A DNA stretch of 63,375 bases, counting the filler, from Caldilineae bacterium (lineage in GTDB: Bacteria; Chloroflexota; Anaerolineae; DTLA01): assembly GCA_037446815.1 (NCBI GenBank). It is 18 parts of 18 records of this genome, joined end to end, with 100 filler letters (N's around TTAATTAATTAA, not from the genome) between each part and the next. Parts side by side here need not be neighbours in the genome. Positions count along the whole stretch, not along the records: positions 50,671 to 53,799 come from JBBIHX010000239.1; 17 more parts are not named here. One strand, written 5' to 3'. Within the stretch, counting starts at the first letter, position 1; each line of letters starts with the position of its first letter. The notes under the pieces are model-generated. The model did not search any database. It was given only the letters and a program-made list of their open reading frames with translations, and was not told where the DNA came from. Both the position numbers and the translations under genes were made by a program. Shown here piece after piece: positions 1,094 to 53,799 of this stretch.

Positions 1094-2548
1094 ATGGAAC
1101 CGAAGGTGCTGAAGAACTTCGTGGGCGGCGAGTGGGTTGCGTCGGAAGCAACCGAACTGCGCGATGTGGTGAACCCGGCCACGGCCGAGGTCCTGGCGCG
1201 GGTGCCCATGTCCACGCCGGAGGAGGCGAACCGGGCGGTGGAGGTCGCGCACGAGGCGTTCTGGGCATGGCGATGCACGCCGCCTATTACCCGCGCGCGG
1301 TATATGTTCCGCCTCAAGGCGCTGATGGAAGAGAACTTTGAGAAGATCGCCGAACTGAACACGATGGAGAACGGCAAGACCATTGATGAGTCGCGCGGGG
1401 AAGTACGCCGCGCCATTGAGAACGTGGACGTGGCCTGCGGGATTCCGTCGCTGATGATGGGCTACAATGCGGAAGACATCGCGGAAGGGATTGACTCCTT
1501 TGTGCTGAGGCAGCCGCTGGGCGTGTTCGTGCACCTGGCGCCCTTCAACTTTCCCGCCATGGTTCCCTACTGGTTTATCCCCTATGCGCTGGCCACCGGC
1601 AACACGTTTGTGCTCAAGCCGTCCAGCCAGACGCCCATGACGCAGAACTTCCTCGCCCGACTCATGGAAGAGACGGAGTTACCAGAGGGCGTGTTCAACC
1701 TTGTCAACGGTTCCGCGGAAGTCGCGGAGGCGCTGATGTCGCACCCCAAGGTCAAGGGAGTTACCTTCGTCGGCTCCACGCCGGTGGGCAAGCACGTGTA
1801 TGCCTTCAGCGCCCAGCACGGAAAACGCGCCATCGTCCAGGGCGGGGCCAAGAACTTCCTGGTGGTGATGCCCGACGCCGATATGCCGCGCACGGTCGCC
1901 GCCATCATGACCTCAGCGTTCGGATGCGCGGGCCAGCGGTGTCTTGCCGGGTCGGTGATTCTCGCCGTCGGCAAAGCGTATGACGCGCTGGTGCCGCCGC
2001 TGGTGGAGGCCGCGTCGCGCCTGAAGGTGGGCTATGGGCTGGATCAGGCGACGCAGATGGGGCCGGTGGTTTCCGCGGCAGCCAAGAAGAAGATCCTCGG
2101 GTACATTGATTCCGGCGTCGCGGAGGGTGCTCGCCTGCTGCTGGACGGGCGCGGCGTCGTGGTGCCTGGGTATGAGAAGGGCGCGTTCGTCGGCCCCACC
2201 ATCTTTGACGGCGTTACGCCCGACATGGCCATCGCGAAGGATGAGATTTTCGGGCCGGTTCTGGGCATCATGCAGGTGGACTCGCTAGAGGAGTGCTACG
2301 ACATCATCGCCGCGTCGCCCTTTGGGAACGCGGCCAGCGTGTTCACATCTAGCGGCCGTGCGGCGCGGGAGTTTGCCTATCGCGTGGAATGCGGGAACAT
2401 CGGCATCAACCTCGGCATCGCAGCGCCCATCGCCTTCTTCCCGTTCGGTGGGATGAGGGACTCCTTCTTCGGCGTGCTGCACGGGCAGGGGCAGGATGCC
2501 ATCCGCTTCTTTACGGACGACAAGGTGGTCCTAAGCCGTTGGTTCTAG
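1094..2548 (+). CDS. mmsA: CoA-acylating methylmalonate/malonate-semialdehyde dehydrogenase
   Basis: PFNFPAM, FVGSTPV, GGAKN, AGQRCLA and EIFGPV motifs; GGAGG RBS. Confidence 0.88.
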   Translation: MEPKVLKNFVGGEWVASEATELRDVVNPATAEVLARVPMSTPEEANRAVEVAHEAFWAWRCTPPITRARYMFRLKALMEENFEKIAELNTMENGKTIDESRGEVRRAIENVDVACGIPSLMMGYNAEDIAEGIDSFVLRQPLGVFVHLAPFNFPAMVPYWFIPYALATGNTFVLKPSSQTPMTQNFLARLMEETELPEGVFNLVNGSAEVAEALMSHPKVKGVTFVGSTPVGKHVYAFSAQHGKRAIVQGGAKNFLVVMPDADMPRTVAAIMTSAFGCAGQRCLAGSVILAVGKAYDALVPPLVEAASRLKVGYGLDQATQMGPVVSAAAKKKILGYIDSGVAEGARLLLDGRGVVVPGYEKGAFVGPTIFDGVTPDMAIAKDEIFGPVLGIMQVDSLEECYDIIAASPFGNAASVFTSSGRAAREFAYRVECGNIGINLGIAAPIAFFPFGGMRDSFFGVLHGQGQDAIRFFTDDKVVLSRWF

Positions 2549-2570
2549 CCTTCTGGGGGTGGGAGGGTTC

Positions 2571-3005
2571 ATGGAACTGGAGATCAGCAATTTCGGCGCG
2601 GTGCTGCAATATGGCATGTACCTGGAGCAGGAGTCGGCCCGCTTCTACACCGAGGCTGCGGGGAGGGCGCGCGATGAGGCGTTGCGTCAAACGCTCGCGG
2701 ACTTGGCCGCGGAGTCGGAGCGTCGGCTGAAGACCCTGGAGCGCATTCGGCGCGAGAACGTTACGGAGATGATCCTGACCCCCATCCACGACTTTCACAG
2801 CCGCGACTATGCGGCGGATTTTCGCACACCCGACGGCGACGGAGCGTTGCGGGATGCGGCCGTCGCCGTGGAGAGCGCGAAGGCTCGCTACTACGCGGAC
2901 GCGCGGGCACGCATAGAACTGGCCGAGGCGGGGCGGGCGCTGGGGCGACTCGCACGCGGAAGCCAGGAAGCCGCAGAAACCCTGGCGTCGCTGCCGCTGG
3001 GATAG
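2571..3005 (+). CDS. Ferritin-like/rubrerythrin-like four-helix protein
   Basis: ExxxxxFY...LAxE repeated halves; GGGAGGG RBS before ATG 2571. Confidence 0.6.
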   Translation: MELEISNFGAVLQYGMYLEQESARFYTEAAGRARDEALRQTLADLAAESERRLKTLERIRRENVTEMILTPIHDFHSRDYAADFRTPDGDGALRDAAVAVESAKARYYADARARIELAEAGRALGRLARGSQEAAETLASLPLG

Positions 3006-3078
3006 TTTGCCGCCTGGCTGCACAACCGTCTGTGCGATTACGCCGAGCAGGCTGGCCCTGCTCGGCTGTCGCATCGGC

Positions 3079-6282: not shown

Positions 6283-7252
6283 AGAACTGCACCGACGCTC
6301 CATCGTGATAGATGCCCACTGCGACACGGCGCTGCTGGCCGCCGAGGGCAACTACGACCTGGCCGAACGGCACGACACGCGCCACCTGGATTTCCCCCGC
6401 ATGCGCGAGGGCGGGGTTACGGCGCAGATCTTCGCCGTGTTCGTGGAGCAGCGACACCTGCCCGCCCAGGCCACCCGCCGCGCCCTCCAGGTGATAGACG
6501 CCGTTTACCGCCAGGTGGAGTCCAGCCAGGGCAGCGCGCGCCTGGTAACCCGCGCGGCGGACATTGAGGCCGCCAAGGCCGACGGCGCGCTGGGCGTCAT
6601 CCTCGGGCTGGAGGGCGCCGAGGCGCTGGAGGGCGATCTCGGCGTGCTGCGCACGTTCCACCGCCTGGGGGTGCGCAACATCGGCCTCACGTGGAACTTC
6701 CGCAACCAGGCTGCCGACGGCGTGGCCGAGGAGCGCACCGGCGGCGGCCTCACCACCTTCGGCGTGGCGCTGGTGGAGGAGATGAACCGCCTGGGCATCG
6801 TCGTGGACATCGCCCACCTGTCGCCCGCGGGCGTGGAGGACGTGCTCACGATTAGTCAAGCCCCTATCATCGCGTCGCACGCCAACGCGCGCGCCGTGTG
6901 CGATCACCGCCGCAACTTGACCGACGCCCAACTGGAGAAGATCGCCCGCAACGGCGGCGTGGTGGGCGTAACCTTCGTGCCCCCCTTCGTGGATGGCGCC
7001 GATGGCGGCGCGACGCTCCAGCGGGTGCTGGATCATGTGGACCACATGGTGCGCGTCATGGGCGATGACCACGTGGGCCTGGGGTCCGACTTTGACGGGT
7101 TCTTCGGCGAGGAGGGGACCGCCGGCCTGGAGGATGTGTCGCGGATGCCGGCCATCACCGCCGGCCTCTTGGAGCGCGGCTACTCCGAGGATTCGGTGCA
7201 GAAGATTCTGGGCGGCAACTTCTTGCGCGTGTTCCGCCAGGTGATGGGTTAG
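6269..7252 (+). CDS. Membrane dipeptidase (peptidase M19)
   Basis: DAHCD, LEG, DIAH, ASHAN and GLGSDFDG motifs. Confidence 0.9.
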   Translation: MTNAEELHRRSIVIDAHCDTALLAAEGNYDLAERHDTRHLDFPRMREGGVTAQIFAVFVEQRHLPAQATRRALQVIDAVYRQVESSQGSARLVTRAADIEAAKADGALGVILGLEGAEALEGDLGVLRTFHRLGVRNIGLTWNFRNQAADGVAEERTGGGLTTFGVALVEEMNRLGIVVDIAHLSPAGVEDVLTISQAPIIASHANARAVCDHRRNLTDAQLEKIARNGGVVGVTFVPPFVDGADGGATLQRVLDHVDHMVRVMGDDHVGLGSDFDGFFGEEGTAGLEDVSRMPAITAGLLERGYSEDSVQKILGGNFLRVFRQVMG

Positions 7253-50570: not shown

Positions 50571-50685
50571 NNNNNNNNNNNNNNNNNNNNNNNNNNNNNN
50601 NNNNNNNNNNNNNNTTAATTAATTAANNNNNNNNNNNNNNNNNNNNNNNNNNNNNNNNNNNNNNNNNNNNCGTGAAAACCCGAAC

Positions 50686-50714
50686 TTGCCAAACCCGCGC
50701 CTTTCGCGTATACT
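50686..50714 (+). promoter_or_regulatory. tup operon promoter TTGCCA-17-TATACT
   Basis: Near-consensus; contig begins 15 bp upstream. Confidence 0.7.
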
Positions 50715-50743
50715 GTGTCGCGCAAACCGAATATCGGCCAGGC

Positions 50744-50862
50744 TCTCCGAGCTGCGCAGCCTAAGGGCATCGGCCTATGGCGCGCAGCCGCAGCGCCCGG
50801 GTGCAGGCCCGGGCCAACGGTGCGGATGGAAACATCCGCGCCCCCCGTGCTCGGAAAGGAGA
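50744..50862 (+). ncRNA. Moco-family riboswitch with P3 stem
   Basis: P1 TCTCC/GGAGA, P2 with CCTAAG..TATGG, P3 GCCCGGGT-GCAG-GCCCGGGC, P4 GAAA tetraloop, CCCG-TGCT-CGGAAAGGAGA; upstream of tupB. Confidence 0.85.
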
Positions 50863-50882
50863 ACCGCAGTCCAACGCGCATG

Positions 50883-50916
50883 TCGGCTGCTCCCTTCCGG
50901 GCAGCCGATTCGTTTT
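50883..50916 (+). terminator. Terminator-like expression platform
   Basis: TCGGCTGC...GCAGCCGA followed by TTCGTTTT. Confidence 0.6.
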
Positions 50917-50974
50917 GCTATCGGAGCGGATCCCGTTGGGGTGAATCGTGCATTCGCCCCCGAGGAGGTGCACC

Positions 50975-51682
50975 ATCGGCGAAATCTGGGAGGGGCTCAA
51001 ACAAGCCGCGCTGCTTCTCTGGCATCTGGACCCCGAGGTGCTGAACATCGTAGCCGTCTCGCTGCGGGTGTCTGGAACGGCCTTGGTCTTCAGCGCCGCC
51101 ATCGGCATCCCGCTGGGCGCGTGGCTGGGATTCTCCCGCTTCCTGGGCCGCAGACTCCTCGTCGCGCTGCTGTACACAGGCATGGGATTCCCGCCCGTGG
51201 TCGTCGGCCTGTTCGTCTACTTGCTCCTGTCGCAGAGCGGCCCCCTGGGGAGTCTGAACGTCGCGTGGATTCCCCGCCTGTTCACCGTCGGCGCGATGAT
51301 CGTGGCCCAGGTCATCATCTCGTTTCCCCTGGTGGCGGGGTTCACCATGGCCGCCGTCAAGGGCGTGGACCCCAACCTACGCCAGCAGTTGATCTCCCTG
51401 GGCGCGACCCCATGGCAGGCGACGCTCGCCATCCTGCGCGAAGCGCGCTTCGGCGTCATCGTCTCCATCATCGCGGGCTTTGGGAGCATCATCTCCGAGG
51501 TGGGCGCGGTCATGCTGGTCGGCGGCAACATCCAGGGCTCCACCCGCGTGCTCACCACCGCCATCGTGCTTGAGACGCGTCGGGGCGACTTCAGTCTCGC
51601 CATCGCGCTCGCCATCATCCTCCTGGGCCTGTCGTTCGTCAGCAACATCCTCATGCTCCGCCTGCAGGGGAAGACCGCATGA
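50975..51682 (+). CDS. tupB: Tungstate ABC transporter permease (probable ATC start)
   Basis: PPVVVGL, ISEVGAVMLVGGNI and TRVLTTAI motifs; GAGGAGGT RBS 5 nt before ATC. Confidence 0.9.
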   Translation: MGEIWEGLKQAALLLWHLDPEVLNIVAVSLRVSGTALVFSAAIGIPLGAWLGFSRFLGRRLLVALLYTGMGFPPVVVGLFVYLLLSQSGPLGSLNVAWIPRLFTVGAMIVAQVIISFPLVAGFTMAAVKGVDPNLRQQLISLGATPWQATLAILREARFGVIVSIIAGFGSIISEVGAVMLVGGNIQGSTRVLTTAIVLETRRGDFSLAIALAIILLGLSFVSNILMLRLQGKTA

Positions 51683-52410
51683 GCGATTGGGCGTACATGG
51701 GCGAGGGGATCCGCGTAACCTACGGGCGGCGCACCGTGCTGCGCGTGGAGCAACTCACCGTGAGGGCGGGCGACCTGCTGGGCATCGTCGGCCCCAGCGG
51801 CGCGGGCAAGAGCACCCTCCTGCGCGTGCTGGCCCTGCTGGAACCGCCGACCGCGGGCGTGCTGTATTTCGGCGGGAACACCGAACCCGTGCACTGGCCC
51901 CCGCCGCTGGACGTGCGGCGGCGCGTTACCATGGTCTTCCAGCGCCCGCTCCTGCTGACCGACAACGTATTCCGCAACGTGGCCTTCGGGTTGCGCGCCC
52001 GCGGAGCCGACAACATCCGCCCGCGCGTGGAGCAGGCGCTGGAGATGGTTGGCCTGGGCCACATGGCCCACGCGCCCGCTCACACTCTCTCGGGCGGCGA
52101 ACTCCAGCGGGTGGCCCTGGCCCGCGCCCTGGTGCTGGAGCCCGAGGTGCTCCTCCTGGACGAGCCGACGGCCAACCTGGACCCCTACAACGTGTCGGTC
52201 ATAGAAGAGGCCCTCAAGCGCCTGCGCCACCACAACCACACCACCATCGTGCTGGTTACGCACAACGTCTTCCAGGCCCGCCGTCTGGCCGACAGGGTCA
52301 TGTTCCTGCTGGACGGCGAGTGCGTGGAGACCGCCGATACCGAGACGTTCTTTGAATCGCCGAACGACCCGCGGACGCGAGCGTTCGTTCGCGGGGAAAT
52401 GGTGTACTGA
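51679..52410 (+). CDS. tupC: Tungstate ABC transporter ATPase
   Basis: GPSGAGKS, LSGGE and DEPTANLD motifs; operon context. Confidence 0.88.
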   Translation: MSDWAYMGEGIRVTYGRRTVLRVEQLTVRAGDLLGIVGPSGAGKSTLLRVLALLEPPTAGVLYFGGNTEPVHWPPPLDVRRRVTMVFQRPLLLTDNVFRNVAFGLRARGADNIRPRVEQALEMVGLGHMAHAPAHTLSGGELQRVALARALVLEPEVLLLDEPTANLDPYNVSVIEEALKRLRHHNHTTIVLVTHNVFQARRLADRVMFLLDGECVETADTETFFESPNDPRTRAFVRGEMVY

Positions 52411-52416
52411 GTCCTG

Positions 52417-52519
52417 TTCTCCGACTTCGTGAGCCTAAAGGCGCCACGCAGCGCCCATGGCGGCGAAGCAGTAGGGTAAGGCTGGAAACGGCCTTGCCTC
52501 CCGTGCTTGGAAAGGAGAG
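52417..52519 (+). ncRNA. Moco-family riboswitch lacking P3 (Tuco/Wco-type)
   Basis: TTCTCCGA..GCCTAAAG..CATGG..GGTAAGGCTG-GAAA-CGGCCTTGCC-TCCCGTGCTTGGAAAGGAGAG. Confidence 0.85.
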
Positions 52520-52626
52520 GCGGAAATGCAGAAACACGGCTTTCTTACGTGCGCTCCGCCATCTCCGCAGCAGCAAGGAGGTGATGCGGAGCGCATGGTT
52601 TGCTGTTGACCCCCAACGGCACGTTG

Positions 52627-52768
52627 GAGTCGTCCCCAGCCCATGTTGGCAAACAACACGCTCGCCACGTGCGTCATTGCAAGCACAGCGGAGCAATCTC
52701 GCCCCGCAGGGGGTCTCGGGCGGCCGCTCCTTGCAACGGCATTTGCCAGCAACGTTCCGAACCGAATC
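52627..52768. mobile_element. Degenerate MITE relic (type 1)
   Basis: GAGTCG...TGTTGG, GTCATTGCAAGC..GCAATCTC, ...GAACCGAATC. Confidence 0.55.
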
Positions 52769-52805
52769 CCAAAACGACCACCATTCACACCTGTAGGAGG
52801 TTACC

Positions 52806-53675
52806 ATGAGGAGGCTCATCACACTCGGTTTGGCCATTGGGATCCTGCTCAGCGTCGGCGCTTGCGGCGCAAAACCTACCCCGACGCCGCTCCCGCCCCA
52901 GAAACTCATCCTCGCCACCACCACCAGCACCGCCGACTCGGGCCTGCTGGATTTCCTCCTGCCCGATTTTGAGGCGAAGTACAACTGCGACGTGCAGATC
53001 ATCGCCGTGGGCACGGGCCAGGCGCTGGCCACCGGCGCGAAGGGCGACGCCGACGTGGTGCTCGTTCACGCGCGCAGCCAGGAGGACAAGTTCGTCGCCG
53101 ACGGCGATGGCGTGAACCGACAGGATGTGATGTACAACGATTTCATCATCGTCGGCCCGCCGAGCGACCCCGCCGGCATTCAGGGCCTGCCATCGGCCGC
53201 AGACGCGTTCGCCAAGATTGCCCAGGCCAAGGCCCCGTTCGCATCCAGAGGCGACGGTTCGGGCACGGAAACCAAGGAGAAGGCCATCTGGAAGGCGGCG
53301 GGAATCACCCCAGACCCGCAATCGGGCTGGTACTTCTCGCTGGGCCAGGGCATGGGCGACACCCTGCTGTTCGCCAGCGAGAAGGGCGCGTACACGCTTG
53401 CCGACCGCGGCACGTACCTGAGCATGCGTGGCAAACTGAACCTGGCCATCCTGGTGGGCGGCGAGAGCATTGACCAGAACGCGGACAAGACGCTGCTGAA
53501 CCCCTACGGCGTCATCGCCGTGAATCCCGCCAAGCATCCGAACGTGAACTACGACCTGGCGATGAAGTTCATAGACTGGCTCACTTCCGTGGAGACCCAG
53601 AAGCGGATTCTGGAGTTCACCGTGGGCGGGCAGCCGCTGTTCTACCCCGACTCCGCCGCATGGAGGGCGCGGTAG
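52806..53675 (+). CDS. tupA: Tungstate ABC transporter substrate-binding lipoprotein
   Basis: Lipobox VGAC; LATTTS..DSGLL, VGTGQAL, MYNDF and SRGDxSGT motifs. Confidence 0.93.
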   Translation: MRRLITLGLAIGILLSVGACGAKPTPTPLPPQKLILATTTSTADSGLLDFLLPDFEAKYNCDVQIIAVGTGQALATGAKGDADVVLVHARSQEDKFVADGDGVNRQDVMYNDFIIVGPPSDPAGIQGLPSAADAFAKIAQAKAPFASRGDGSGTETKEKAIWKAAGITPDPQSGWYFSLGQGMGDTLLFASEKGAYTLADRGTYLSMRGKLNLAILVGGESIDQNADKTLLNPYGVIAVNPAKHPNVNYDLAMKFIDWLTSVETQKRILEFTVGGQPLFYPDSAAWRAR

Positions 53676-53698
53676 GGCGAATCCCGTAGTCGCCCCGC

Positions 53699-53799
53699 GG
53701 TTCGGCTCCAAAGTCCGTTGGTAACCGCCATTGCGAGAGCACGGGCGACGCCCTCACCCCGGCCCTCTCCCGGCGGGCGAGGGAGCGTCGCCCTCACCC
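53699..53799. mobile_element. MITE end with CCCTCACCCC modules, truncated
   Basis: TTCGGCTCCAAAGTCCGTTGG; similar to the reverse of 11438-11538. Confidence 0.65.

Follow-up and report, generated by a model that had tools for sequence, protein, structure and literature searches.

Two Moco-family riboswitches, one with and one without P3, in a single tupB-tupC-tupA operon of a Caldilineae bacterium

The tupB-tupC-tupA operon of a Caldilineae bacterium (assembly GCA_037446815.1; Chloroflexota, Anaerolineae) carries two riboswitches of the molybdenum cofactor (Moco) family, Rfam RF01055, that differ in class; the copy ahead of tupB contains the P3 hairpin, and the copy between tupC and tupA lacks it. 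The DNA analysed, called the window below, is a stretch of 63,375 b in which short contigs of a metagenome-assembled genome are strung together via N/linker blocks, the operon itself lying within a single contig of 3,129 b (window 50671-53799, or C239 of the genome under study, G000). At 93.6% completeness, this genome comprises 265 contigs totalling 3.19 Mb. When the whole window was searched by cmscan against Rfam at the gathering threshold, three matches were returned, namely the two of RF01055 and one tRNA; as the initial annotation had anticipated, both copies passed the covariance model, with 67.0 and 73.1 bits against an RF01055 gathering score of 36. Both are genuine members of the Moco/tungsten cofactor (Wco) riboswitch family. 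We favour, with modest confidence, a reading in which they act one after the other as OFF switches on the same mRNA and probably respond to different inputs; the pair itself is real, and what we make of it is plausible but unproven.

Two riboswitch classes in one operon

The features of the operon, in window positions and all on the plus strand, are as follows.
50686-50714, plus: promoter-like site TTGCCA-17-TATACT, matching 10/12 consensus positions, the sole such site on the contig
50733-50875, plus: riboswitch copy 1, RF01055 with P3, 67.0 bits, E 6e-14
50882-50919, plus: intrinsic terminator T1, an 11-bp hairpin (50882-50909) and TCGTTTTGCT tail, found by terminator scan
50948-51682, plus: tupB-like permease; NF038017 248 bits (cut-off 100), NF041773 168 bits (below the equivalog cut-off of 320)
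51679-52410, plus: tupC-like ABC ATPase; PF00005, E 1e-30; overlaps tupB by 4 nt
52407-52533, plus: riboswitch copy 2, RF01055 without P3, intercistronic, 73.1 bits, E 9.5e-16
52551-52609, plus: hairpin T2 (arms 52551-52566 and 52577-52594) and weak U-tract ATGGTTTGCTGTTGA, inner part found by terminator scan
about 52627-52776, plus: decayed copy of a dispersed repeat of about 175 nt resembling a miniature inverted-repeat transposable element (MITE), found by blastn of the spacer against the genome
52806-53675, plus: tupA-like lipoprotein, a tungstate/molybdate-binding protein; NF041772 224.7 bits, PF12849 E 1e-49

Alignment by cmscan placed both copies over model positions 1-135 and bore out the shared anatomy that had been described for them, i.e., P1, P2, a GAAA-capped P4 and the CCCGU..GGAAAGGAG 3' end. 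The alignments and sequences also revealed, in both, a receptor-like CCUAA..AUGG bulge in P2 and a short 3' helix. The difference in class was likewise as annotated: in copy 1, 24 nt are inserted at the position of P3 and form an 8-bp hairpin (50795-50814), while the P3 columns are deleted in the alignment of copy 2. Across the five genomes of the genus comparison (G000 and four other species, 93.6-98% complete), the outer part of the copy 1 P3 varies in sequence and length, with pairing maintained. Copy 2 does begin a few nucleotides past tupC, the stop codon occupying 52408-52410 and the P1 5' strand starting at 52417, with 7 nt between. The two RF01055 matches are separated by 1,531 nt and two genes; because these genes stand between the aptamers, which are therefore not adjacent in one leader, the layout falls outside the strict definition of a tandem riboswitch.

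The genome holds three RF01055 copies in all, copy 2 being the best-scoring. The third (49.7 bits, contig C54) lacks P3 and lies directly upstream of an aldehyde:ferredoxin oxidoreductase (AOR) gene; its loop is GCAA and it is without a receptor, which agrees with what Regulski et al. (2008; PMC2408646) describe for GCAA copies. An AOR elsewhere in the bin had been part of the initial annotation, and ten AFOR_N loci were found in the genome, one of them being that behind the C54 copy.

Expression platforms and the internal copy

Promoter-like sites and terminators were sought by a consensus scan of the operon contig. Both hexamer regions of the promoter-like site are kept in the alignment of 5/5 genus genomes. 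The T1 hairpin that follows copy 1 consists of 11 pairs, seven of them GC, with a predicted stability of -19.8 kcal/mol and a U-run directly after it, which is the GC-rich hairpin and U-run by which an intrinsic terminator is recognized. Its competitor is an antiterminator in which the aptamer 3' strand (50849-50861) pairs with 50890-50902 inside T1 (-25.3 kcal/mol), and this pairing appears in the minimum free energy structure of the leader. The T1 hairpin is nearly invariant in the five genus genomes, the exception being one 1-nt loop indel, and the module of promoter-like site, aptamer 1 and T1 is conserved in 5/5. As modelled, the strand competition between copy 1 and T1 is a classic OFF design. 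With the promoter-like site upstream and T1 downstream, copy 1 can thus gate the whole operon.

Copy 2 has a platform of its own. T2 is a 16-bp hairpin (-35.8 kcal/mol), and its 5' arm is complementary to the copy 2 aptamer tail at 52513-52524 (-23.2 kcal/mol). Placed after tupC and ahead of tupA, and followed by this hairpin, copy 2 can control tupA alone. Termination at T2 is nonetheless uncertain on folding grounds, the tail ATGGTTTGCTGTTGA being only a weak U-run. A hairpin of the same kind in the relative G105 carries a run of eight T, and in the relatives G021, G011 and G007 there is no U-run, and sequence past the aptamer is instead the complement of the tupA ribosome site. The pairing itself was examined in G011 (L017:2100-2445), L143 (2695-2850) and G007 (L009:1-213), in which the P3-less aptamer is directly followed by GTCTTCCTC, the complement of the tupA ribosome-binding site (RBS) GAGGAAGAC about 120 nt downstream, and the predicted long-range helix encloses the platform hairpin. 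This suggests, from modelled pairing, a relay in those three that ends in RBS sequestration, not termination. An automatic hairpin/duplex table, which merged large domains, was used solely for this helix.

Two further elements were considered around T2 and set aside. One was an open reading frame of 27 codons (52527-52610) that starts 8 nt after the aptamer GGAG; as a gene it was rejected, since the corresponding peptides are unrelated, there is no NCBIfam match, and a strain variant has a 1-nt deletion in it. The position of its start is that of the tupA start in G113 and G105, and a start codon is also found there in G021 (GTG) and G059 (TTG), not in G011 or G007; a role of its translation in coupling is possible. 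The other was the Shine-Dalgarno-like 3' arm of T2, rejected as a real ribosome site because no conserved start codon follows it.

The proposed circuit would operate as follows. Transcription would start at the promoter-like site, and copy 1, whose P3-containing form is linked to the molybdenum cofactor, would decide at T1 whether tupB-tupC-tupA is transcribed. With ligand absent, its 3' strand would pair with the 5' side of T1 and allow readthrough; with ligand bound, P1 would keep that strand and T1 would form. Copy 2, of the P3-less form linked to the tungsten cofactor, would then decide at T2 on continuation into tupA by the same strand-competition design. Expression of tupA would thus need both signals to be low, and that of the permease and the ATPase only the first. 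The identities of the ligands, termination at T2 and co-transcription are all three what we infer. The more specific version of the circuit, in which P3-containing molybdenum-cofactor and P3-less tungsten-cofactor sensors act in series, so that the binding protein is metered by both pools and the pump by one, is offered tentatively, as somewhat short of probable.

Alternatively, copy 2 and tupA may form a separate transcription unit with a promoter in the 3' end of tupC, such that each riboswitch controls its own genes only. The corresponding units are indeed physically apart elsewhere, being divergent in G059, about 3 kb from each other in G105, and at two contig ends in G113; moreover, a strong hairpin stands between tupC and the second riboswitch in G021, and the two are 140 nt apart in G011, all of which suggests a self-contained riboswitch-tupA module. 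In G000, however, just 7 nt run from the tupC stop to P1, the consensus scan of the contig returned no promoter-like site besides that at 50686, and there is no terminator after tupC. We consider the separate unit quite unlikely here.

The conservation of the internal copy was then compared at the genus level and among strains. In the four other genus species the operon reads P3-containing riboswitch, tupB, tupC, tupA. Positions 1-1740 and 2224-3006 of the G000 contig align to the genus at about 84-85%, and the stretch between has no counterpart, so that copy 2, its platform and the MITE-like repeat together make up an indel of about 380 nt that is private to G000 within the genus. An assembly chimera was ruled out by the match of both flanks to the genus at 84-85% and by an independent contig across the insert. 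That contig (X2), 1,629 nt long and from a sediment metagenome of another study, crosses 52250-53000 with 19 differences and one gap (97.5% identity); hot-spring contigs cover 52250-52431 and 52469-53000. The differences from the strain-level contigs fall by region as follows.
Aptamer core: X2, 1; X3, 0 (covered part)
T2 stem: X2, 0; X3, 0
Spacer: X2, 5; X3, 12
tupC, over 161 nt: X2, 6; X3, 9
tupA, over 195 nt: X2, 6; X3, 4
The flanking genes thus differ by 2-6% in these contigs, while the single aptamer-core change, in X2, restores the usual receptor sequence, and the strain variants inside the T2 hairpin are solely a loop base and a bulge base. Judged from the sequence variation in this small sample, such a pattern is one that a functional element would show.

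The MITE-like repeat accounts for most of the long gap (a 272-nt spacer) before tupA. For the spacer, blastn returned 81 rows spread over 69 contigs, counting the C239 self-match, and coverage of the spacer peaks at 80 once that match is left out; full copies of the repeat have terminal inverted repeats of about 23 nt and an internal palindrome (e.g., C200:350-482 and C159:6496-6609). In the tupA leader the copy is an old, degraded one, roughly 70% like the others by eye. Beyond the aptamer and this repeat, nothing similar to the insert was found in 220 loci or in the G000 genome. It could be argued that copy 2 is a recent passenger that arrived by recombination with the mobile repeat and plays no regulatory role here, as the extra stretch is private to G000 in the genus and includes this dispersed element. 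Such an origin without function appears highly improbable, considering that copy 2 is the best-scoring RF01055 of the genome, that, in strains from other studies, its core and the T2 stem have changed less than the coding sequence next to them, and that a P3-less copy occupies the same slot between tupC and tupA in G021 and G011.

P3 status and downstream genes in the class

For a wider view, 151 genomes of the class were searched for RF01055, which was present in 79, and the best 150 matches (from 73/151 genomes) were taken with 3.2 kb of downstream sequence. P3 status was assigned by a script that used anchors and RNAfold, 30/150 being read by eye, and the first downstream gene was named via BLAST to G000 proteins and Pfam. 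These matches come from related genomes and are non-independent, and the counts are given without statistics. P3 was present in 69 of the 150 and absent from 81, with first downstream genes as follows.
tupB: 25 with P3, 6 P3-less
tupA: 3 with P3, 9 P3-less
AOR: 1 with P3, 17 P3-less (plus 4 P3-less before AOR-type ferredoxins)
Molybdopterin (MPT)/Moco synthesis: 14 with P3, 6 P3-less
FmdE: 5 with P3, 0 P3-less
Sulfite-oxidase family: 3 with P3, 5 P3-less
Xanthine-dehydrogenase family: 0 with P3, 3 P3-less
The association of P3-less copies with tungsten-related genes, assumed at the outset, was therefore recovered: AOR comes first in 17 cases versus one, copy 2 precedes tupA, and the third G000 copy precedes an AOR.

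The split of the two classes between tupB and tupA also recurs. Both genes are riboswitch-led in six genomes, four of which (G000, G021, G105 and G113) have a P3-containing copy on tupB and a P3-less one on tupA; G019 has P3 on both, and G059 has copies without P3 on any. The mixed pairs of G021, G007, G105 and G113 were confirmed by Rfam alignments. The closest analogue is G021, a member of another family, with the order P3-containing copy, orfX (a small gene described below), tupB, tupC, P3-less copy, tupA. In G011, tupB, tupC, a P3-less copy and tupA lie downstream of a P3-less moaA leader, and G007 has a direct mixed tandem, its copies 29 nt apart, in the order P3-containing, terminator, P3-less, followed by a lipoprotein gene cut by the contig end. 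Among 80 TupA loci of a species-level genome collection, RF01055 occurred within 3 kb in 17, and two same-strand copies preceded tupA in three, namely L143, L166 (equal to G059) and L186; L143 reads P3-containing copy, terminator, orfX, P3-less copy, tupABC. As to conservation of the dual layout, which had been suggested as a check, the layout is missing from the four closest species, and the split recurs in other Anaerolineae families (G021, G105, G113, G007 and L143).

It may be that both copies sense the same ligand or ligands, P3 being a peripheral decoration and copy 2 serving to sharpen the response or to trim the binding protein relative to the pump. Same-type tandem and triple Moco RNAs are documented (PMC2408646), Sherlock et al. 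(2022; PMC9481103) list 13 Moco doublets and two triplets as well as Wco tandems, and deletion of P3 from the E. coli RNA abolished regulation and did not switch specificity (PMC2408646). Within the class, moreover, molybdenum and tungsten genes are not cleanly separated by P3 status, and G059 has copies without P3 that bear sequence features typical of P3-containing ones, G035 showing the reverse. However, within the same genomes P3-less copies go with AOR by 17 to 1 and P3-containing ones with tupB by 25 to 6, and the order of P3-containing then P3-less copy repeats in G000, G021, G007 and L143, which is not expected of redundant sensors. We therefore regard a shared ligand as unlikely. The recurring split and the link of P3-less copies to AOR argue for two different inputs, as do the segregation of the classes within single genomes and the repeated order before tupA.

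Several side observations were made on the class-wide matches. The P4-closing pair tracks class: most P3-less copies have G.U at this place, and the P3-containing copies before tup genes have C.C or A.C; exceptions are two G059 copies (L010:1521-1643 and 7123-7245) that lack P3 and have A.C, and G035 (L014:3800-3939) with about 19 others in which P3 is present with G.U. There may be more than two RF01055 sequence subclasses. P3-less copies were also found before genes of non-tungsten aldehyde/alcohol dehydrogenases, comprising five cases of Aldedh, zinc-dependent alcohol dehydrogenase (Zn-ADH) or aldo-keto reductase (AKR), and three of a short-chain dehydrogenase/reductase (SDR) followed by MoaD; such dehydrogenases may be AOR alternatives switched by the supply of tungsten cofactor. 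Transporter genes of the Peripla_BP_2 and ABC_cobalt types are frequent targets of both RF01055 classes.

The orfX product is a protein of about 130 residues made of two repeats (LPC..A ... CQLG[L/C]F), encoded by the first gene after many Anaerolineae RF01055 copies, mostly P3-containing, and often directly before tupB, tupA or moaA. It was seen at loci L143, L145, L104, L010/L166, L111, L120, L072, L008, L092, L163 and L091 (e.g., L143:2189-2572, L010:1687-2079, and L008:4406-4795 on the minus strand); G000 has a homologue away from any riboswitch (C4:51714-52106). It matched no Pfam or NCBIfam family, its Atlas clusters being labelled 'hypothetical protein', and we regard it as a candidate molybdenum/tungsten-related protein.

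The transporter, known systems and implications

The names tupB, tupC and tupA hold at the family level, as judged from sequence. The true start of tupB is likely the conserved ATC at 50975, as the arrangement GGAGGTG-6 nt-ATC (window 50962-50977) is found in 5/5 genus genomes; the in-frame upstream GTG of the G000 gene is not conserved, the indels before the ATC are not multiples of three, and the TupB model alignment also begins near the ATC-start residue. The tupC-like gene is 88-92% identical to the same-position gene in the four genus relatives. TupA, of which only one was found in the genome, scores below the NF041772 equivalog cut-off of 400; its PDB relatives are led by 3LR1, a tungstate-binding protein (E 1e-78), followed by 5MY5 (E 4e-62). 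It carries the TTTS motif and the Arg of SRGD, both named as ligand-site features of D. alaskensis TupA (PMC5517513). The operon product shares with the TupABC tungstate transporter (3LR1, 5MY5; PMC5517513) these two features, the PBP_like_2 fold family and the neighbouring permease and ATPase genes, and differs from it in scoring under the NCBI equivalog cut-offs, in the gene order tupB-tupC-tupA, and in being probably the organism's sole importer of group-6 oxyanions. In G021, the TupA homologue (L008:1388-2290, minus strand) has an N-terminal extension after the signal peptide that by eye has the look of a LysM-type repeat.

The metal supply of the organism bears on the role of copy 1. ModA was found in none of the five genus genomes, and WtpA was not found in G000, the one genome searched for it. 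A second molybdenum/tungsten-binding protein sharing TupBC was considered and rejected, since ModA and WtpA gave no match and an SBP_bac_11 match on C11 belongs to a generic ABC system. The genome encodes ten AOR loci, five of the xanthine-dehydrogenase family and two of the sulfite-oxidase family. Because neither ModA nor WtpA was found and enzymes of both the tungsten and the molybdenum type are encoded, Tup probably imports both tungstate and molybdate. For a characterised TupA, the binding affinities are 6.3 pM for tungstate and 6.1 nM for molybdate (PMC5517513). Import of both metals by Tup would account for the presence of a molybdenum-type sensor ahead of a 'tungstate' transporter, and the best physiological logic on offer is a multiplicative, leaky control of total demand.

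The evidence for serial control by two inputs, as the initial annotation had proposed it, thus comprises the anatomy, the recurring split and the 17-to-1 link with AOR, and several points weigh on the other side. Copy 2 is absent from 4/4 same-genus genomes, in which about 15 nt run from the tupC stop to the tupA start, and it is therefore dispensable in close relatives. The U-tract of T2 is poor and, in the hairpins homologous to T2 in G021, G011 and G007, missing; T2 is also far stabler than its antiterminator (-35.8 versus -23.2 kcal/mol), so that the switch would need to be kinetic. A promoter inside tupC is possible, being compatible with the result of the consensus scan. P3 status maps uncleanly onto metal use in this class, as P3-less copies also precede genes of the sulfite-oxidase family (5), the xanthine-dehydrogenase family (3) and MPT/Moco synthesis (6), and 28 P3-containing copies (25 tupB-first and three tupA-first) precede tup genes, contrary to the rule of 2008. 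The logic, moreover, is awkward if TupA is the sole binding protein, as high tungsten cofactor would curb molybdate uptake and high Moco would shut off tungstate uptake. Lastly, our literature searches found no report of direct ligand binding for either class, the evidence in the papers found being genetic.

The family, its two classes, the terminator and RBS platforms and the same-type tandems are already in print. With the classes of Regulski et al. (2008; PMC2408646), the present copies share the end-to-end match, the division into one P3-containing and one P3-less form, and OFF platforms built on competition between the P1 3' strand and a downstream hairpin. In that study the P3-containing moaA RNA of E. 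coli responded to Moco supply, not tungstate; P3-containing RNAs were linked to no genes other than those of Moco/MPT, and tupA and tupB served as tungsten markers. Unlike what that rule would have, it is a P3-containing copy that heads the G000 tupBC(A) operon, and an association only with Moco/MPT or Moco-using genes does not hold for copy 1. Chloroflexota are not among the groups in the abstract of the paper.

Moco and Wco tandems or triples, such as those of Syntrophomonas wolfei and Geobacter metallireducens (Regulski et al. 2008; Sherlock et al. 2022, PMC9481103), likewise place more than one aptamer on a transcript, each with its own platform, and in some of them, as in G000, terminators are present and the first gene lies a long way off. 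However, those are of the same type and back to back in one leader, whereas the G000 copies are of different type, 1.5 kb and two genes apart, and would gate different subsets of the operon; a term search of PMC9481103 met Moco and Wco only under arrangements of one and the same ligand. The tungsten cofactor (Tuco) riboswitches of Eubacterium limosum (tupABC, WOR1 and iron transporters; PMC11725836) similarly are P3-less and precede tungstate uptake and tungsten oxidoreductase genes, and their platforms are a mix of terminator-type and RBS-sequestering ones, as in the copies described here. All five are described as P3-less, each heading its operon, with no internal copy and no P3-containing partner. 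Our literature searches found no mixed series of P3-containing and P3-less copies on one transcript, no internal copy that splits a transporter operon, and no frequent control of tup genes by P3-containing copies.

Whether the two classes discriminate between Moco and Wco has been an open question since 2008, the instability of the ligands standing in the way of routine binding assays. An operon with both classes and separate outputs (3' ends at T1 and T2, and levels of tupBC versus tupA) would provide an internally controlled test object, as both would be read in the same cell, on the same mRNA and from the same promoter. The pair does suit a test of ligand discrimination, as had been suggested, with one P3-containing and one P3-less copy, each having its own platform. 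The results also correct a rule of thumb, in that P3-containing copies often stand first in tup operons of Anaerolineae, the simplest reason being that Tup is the sole importer of both metals, and this affects the use of riboswitch type as a predictor of metal use in uncultured organisms. If the proposed circuit is true, the two classes would discriminate molybdenum from tungsten in one cell and on one mRNA, and G000, G021, G007 and L143 would constitute matched pairs.

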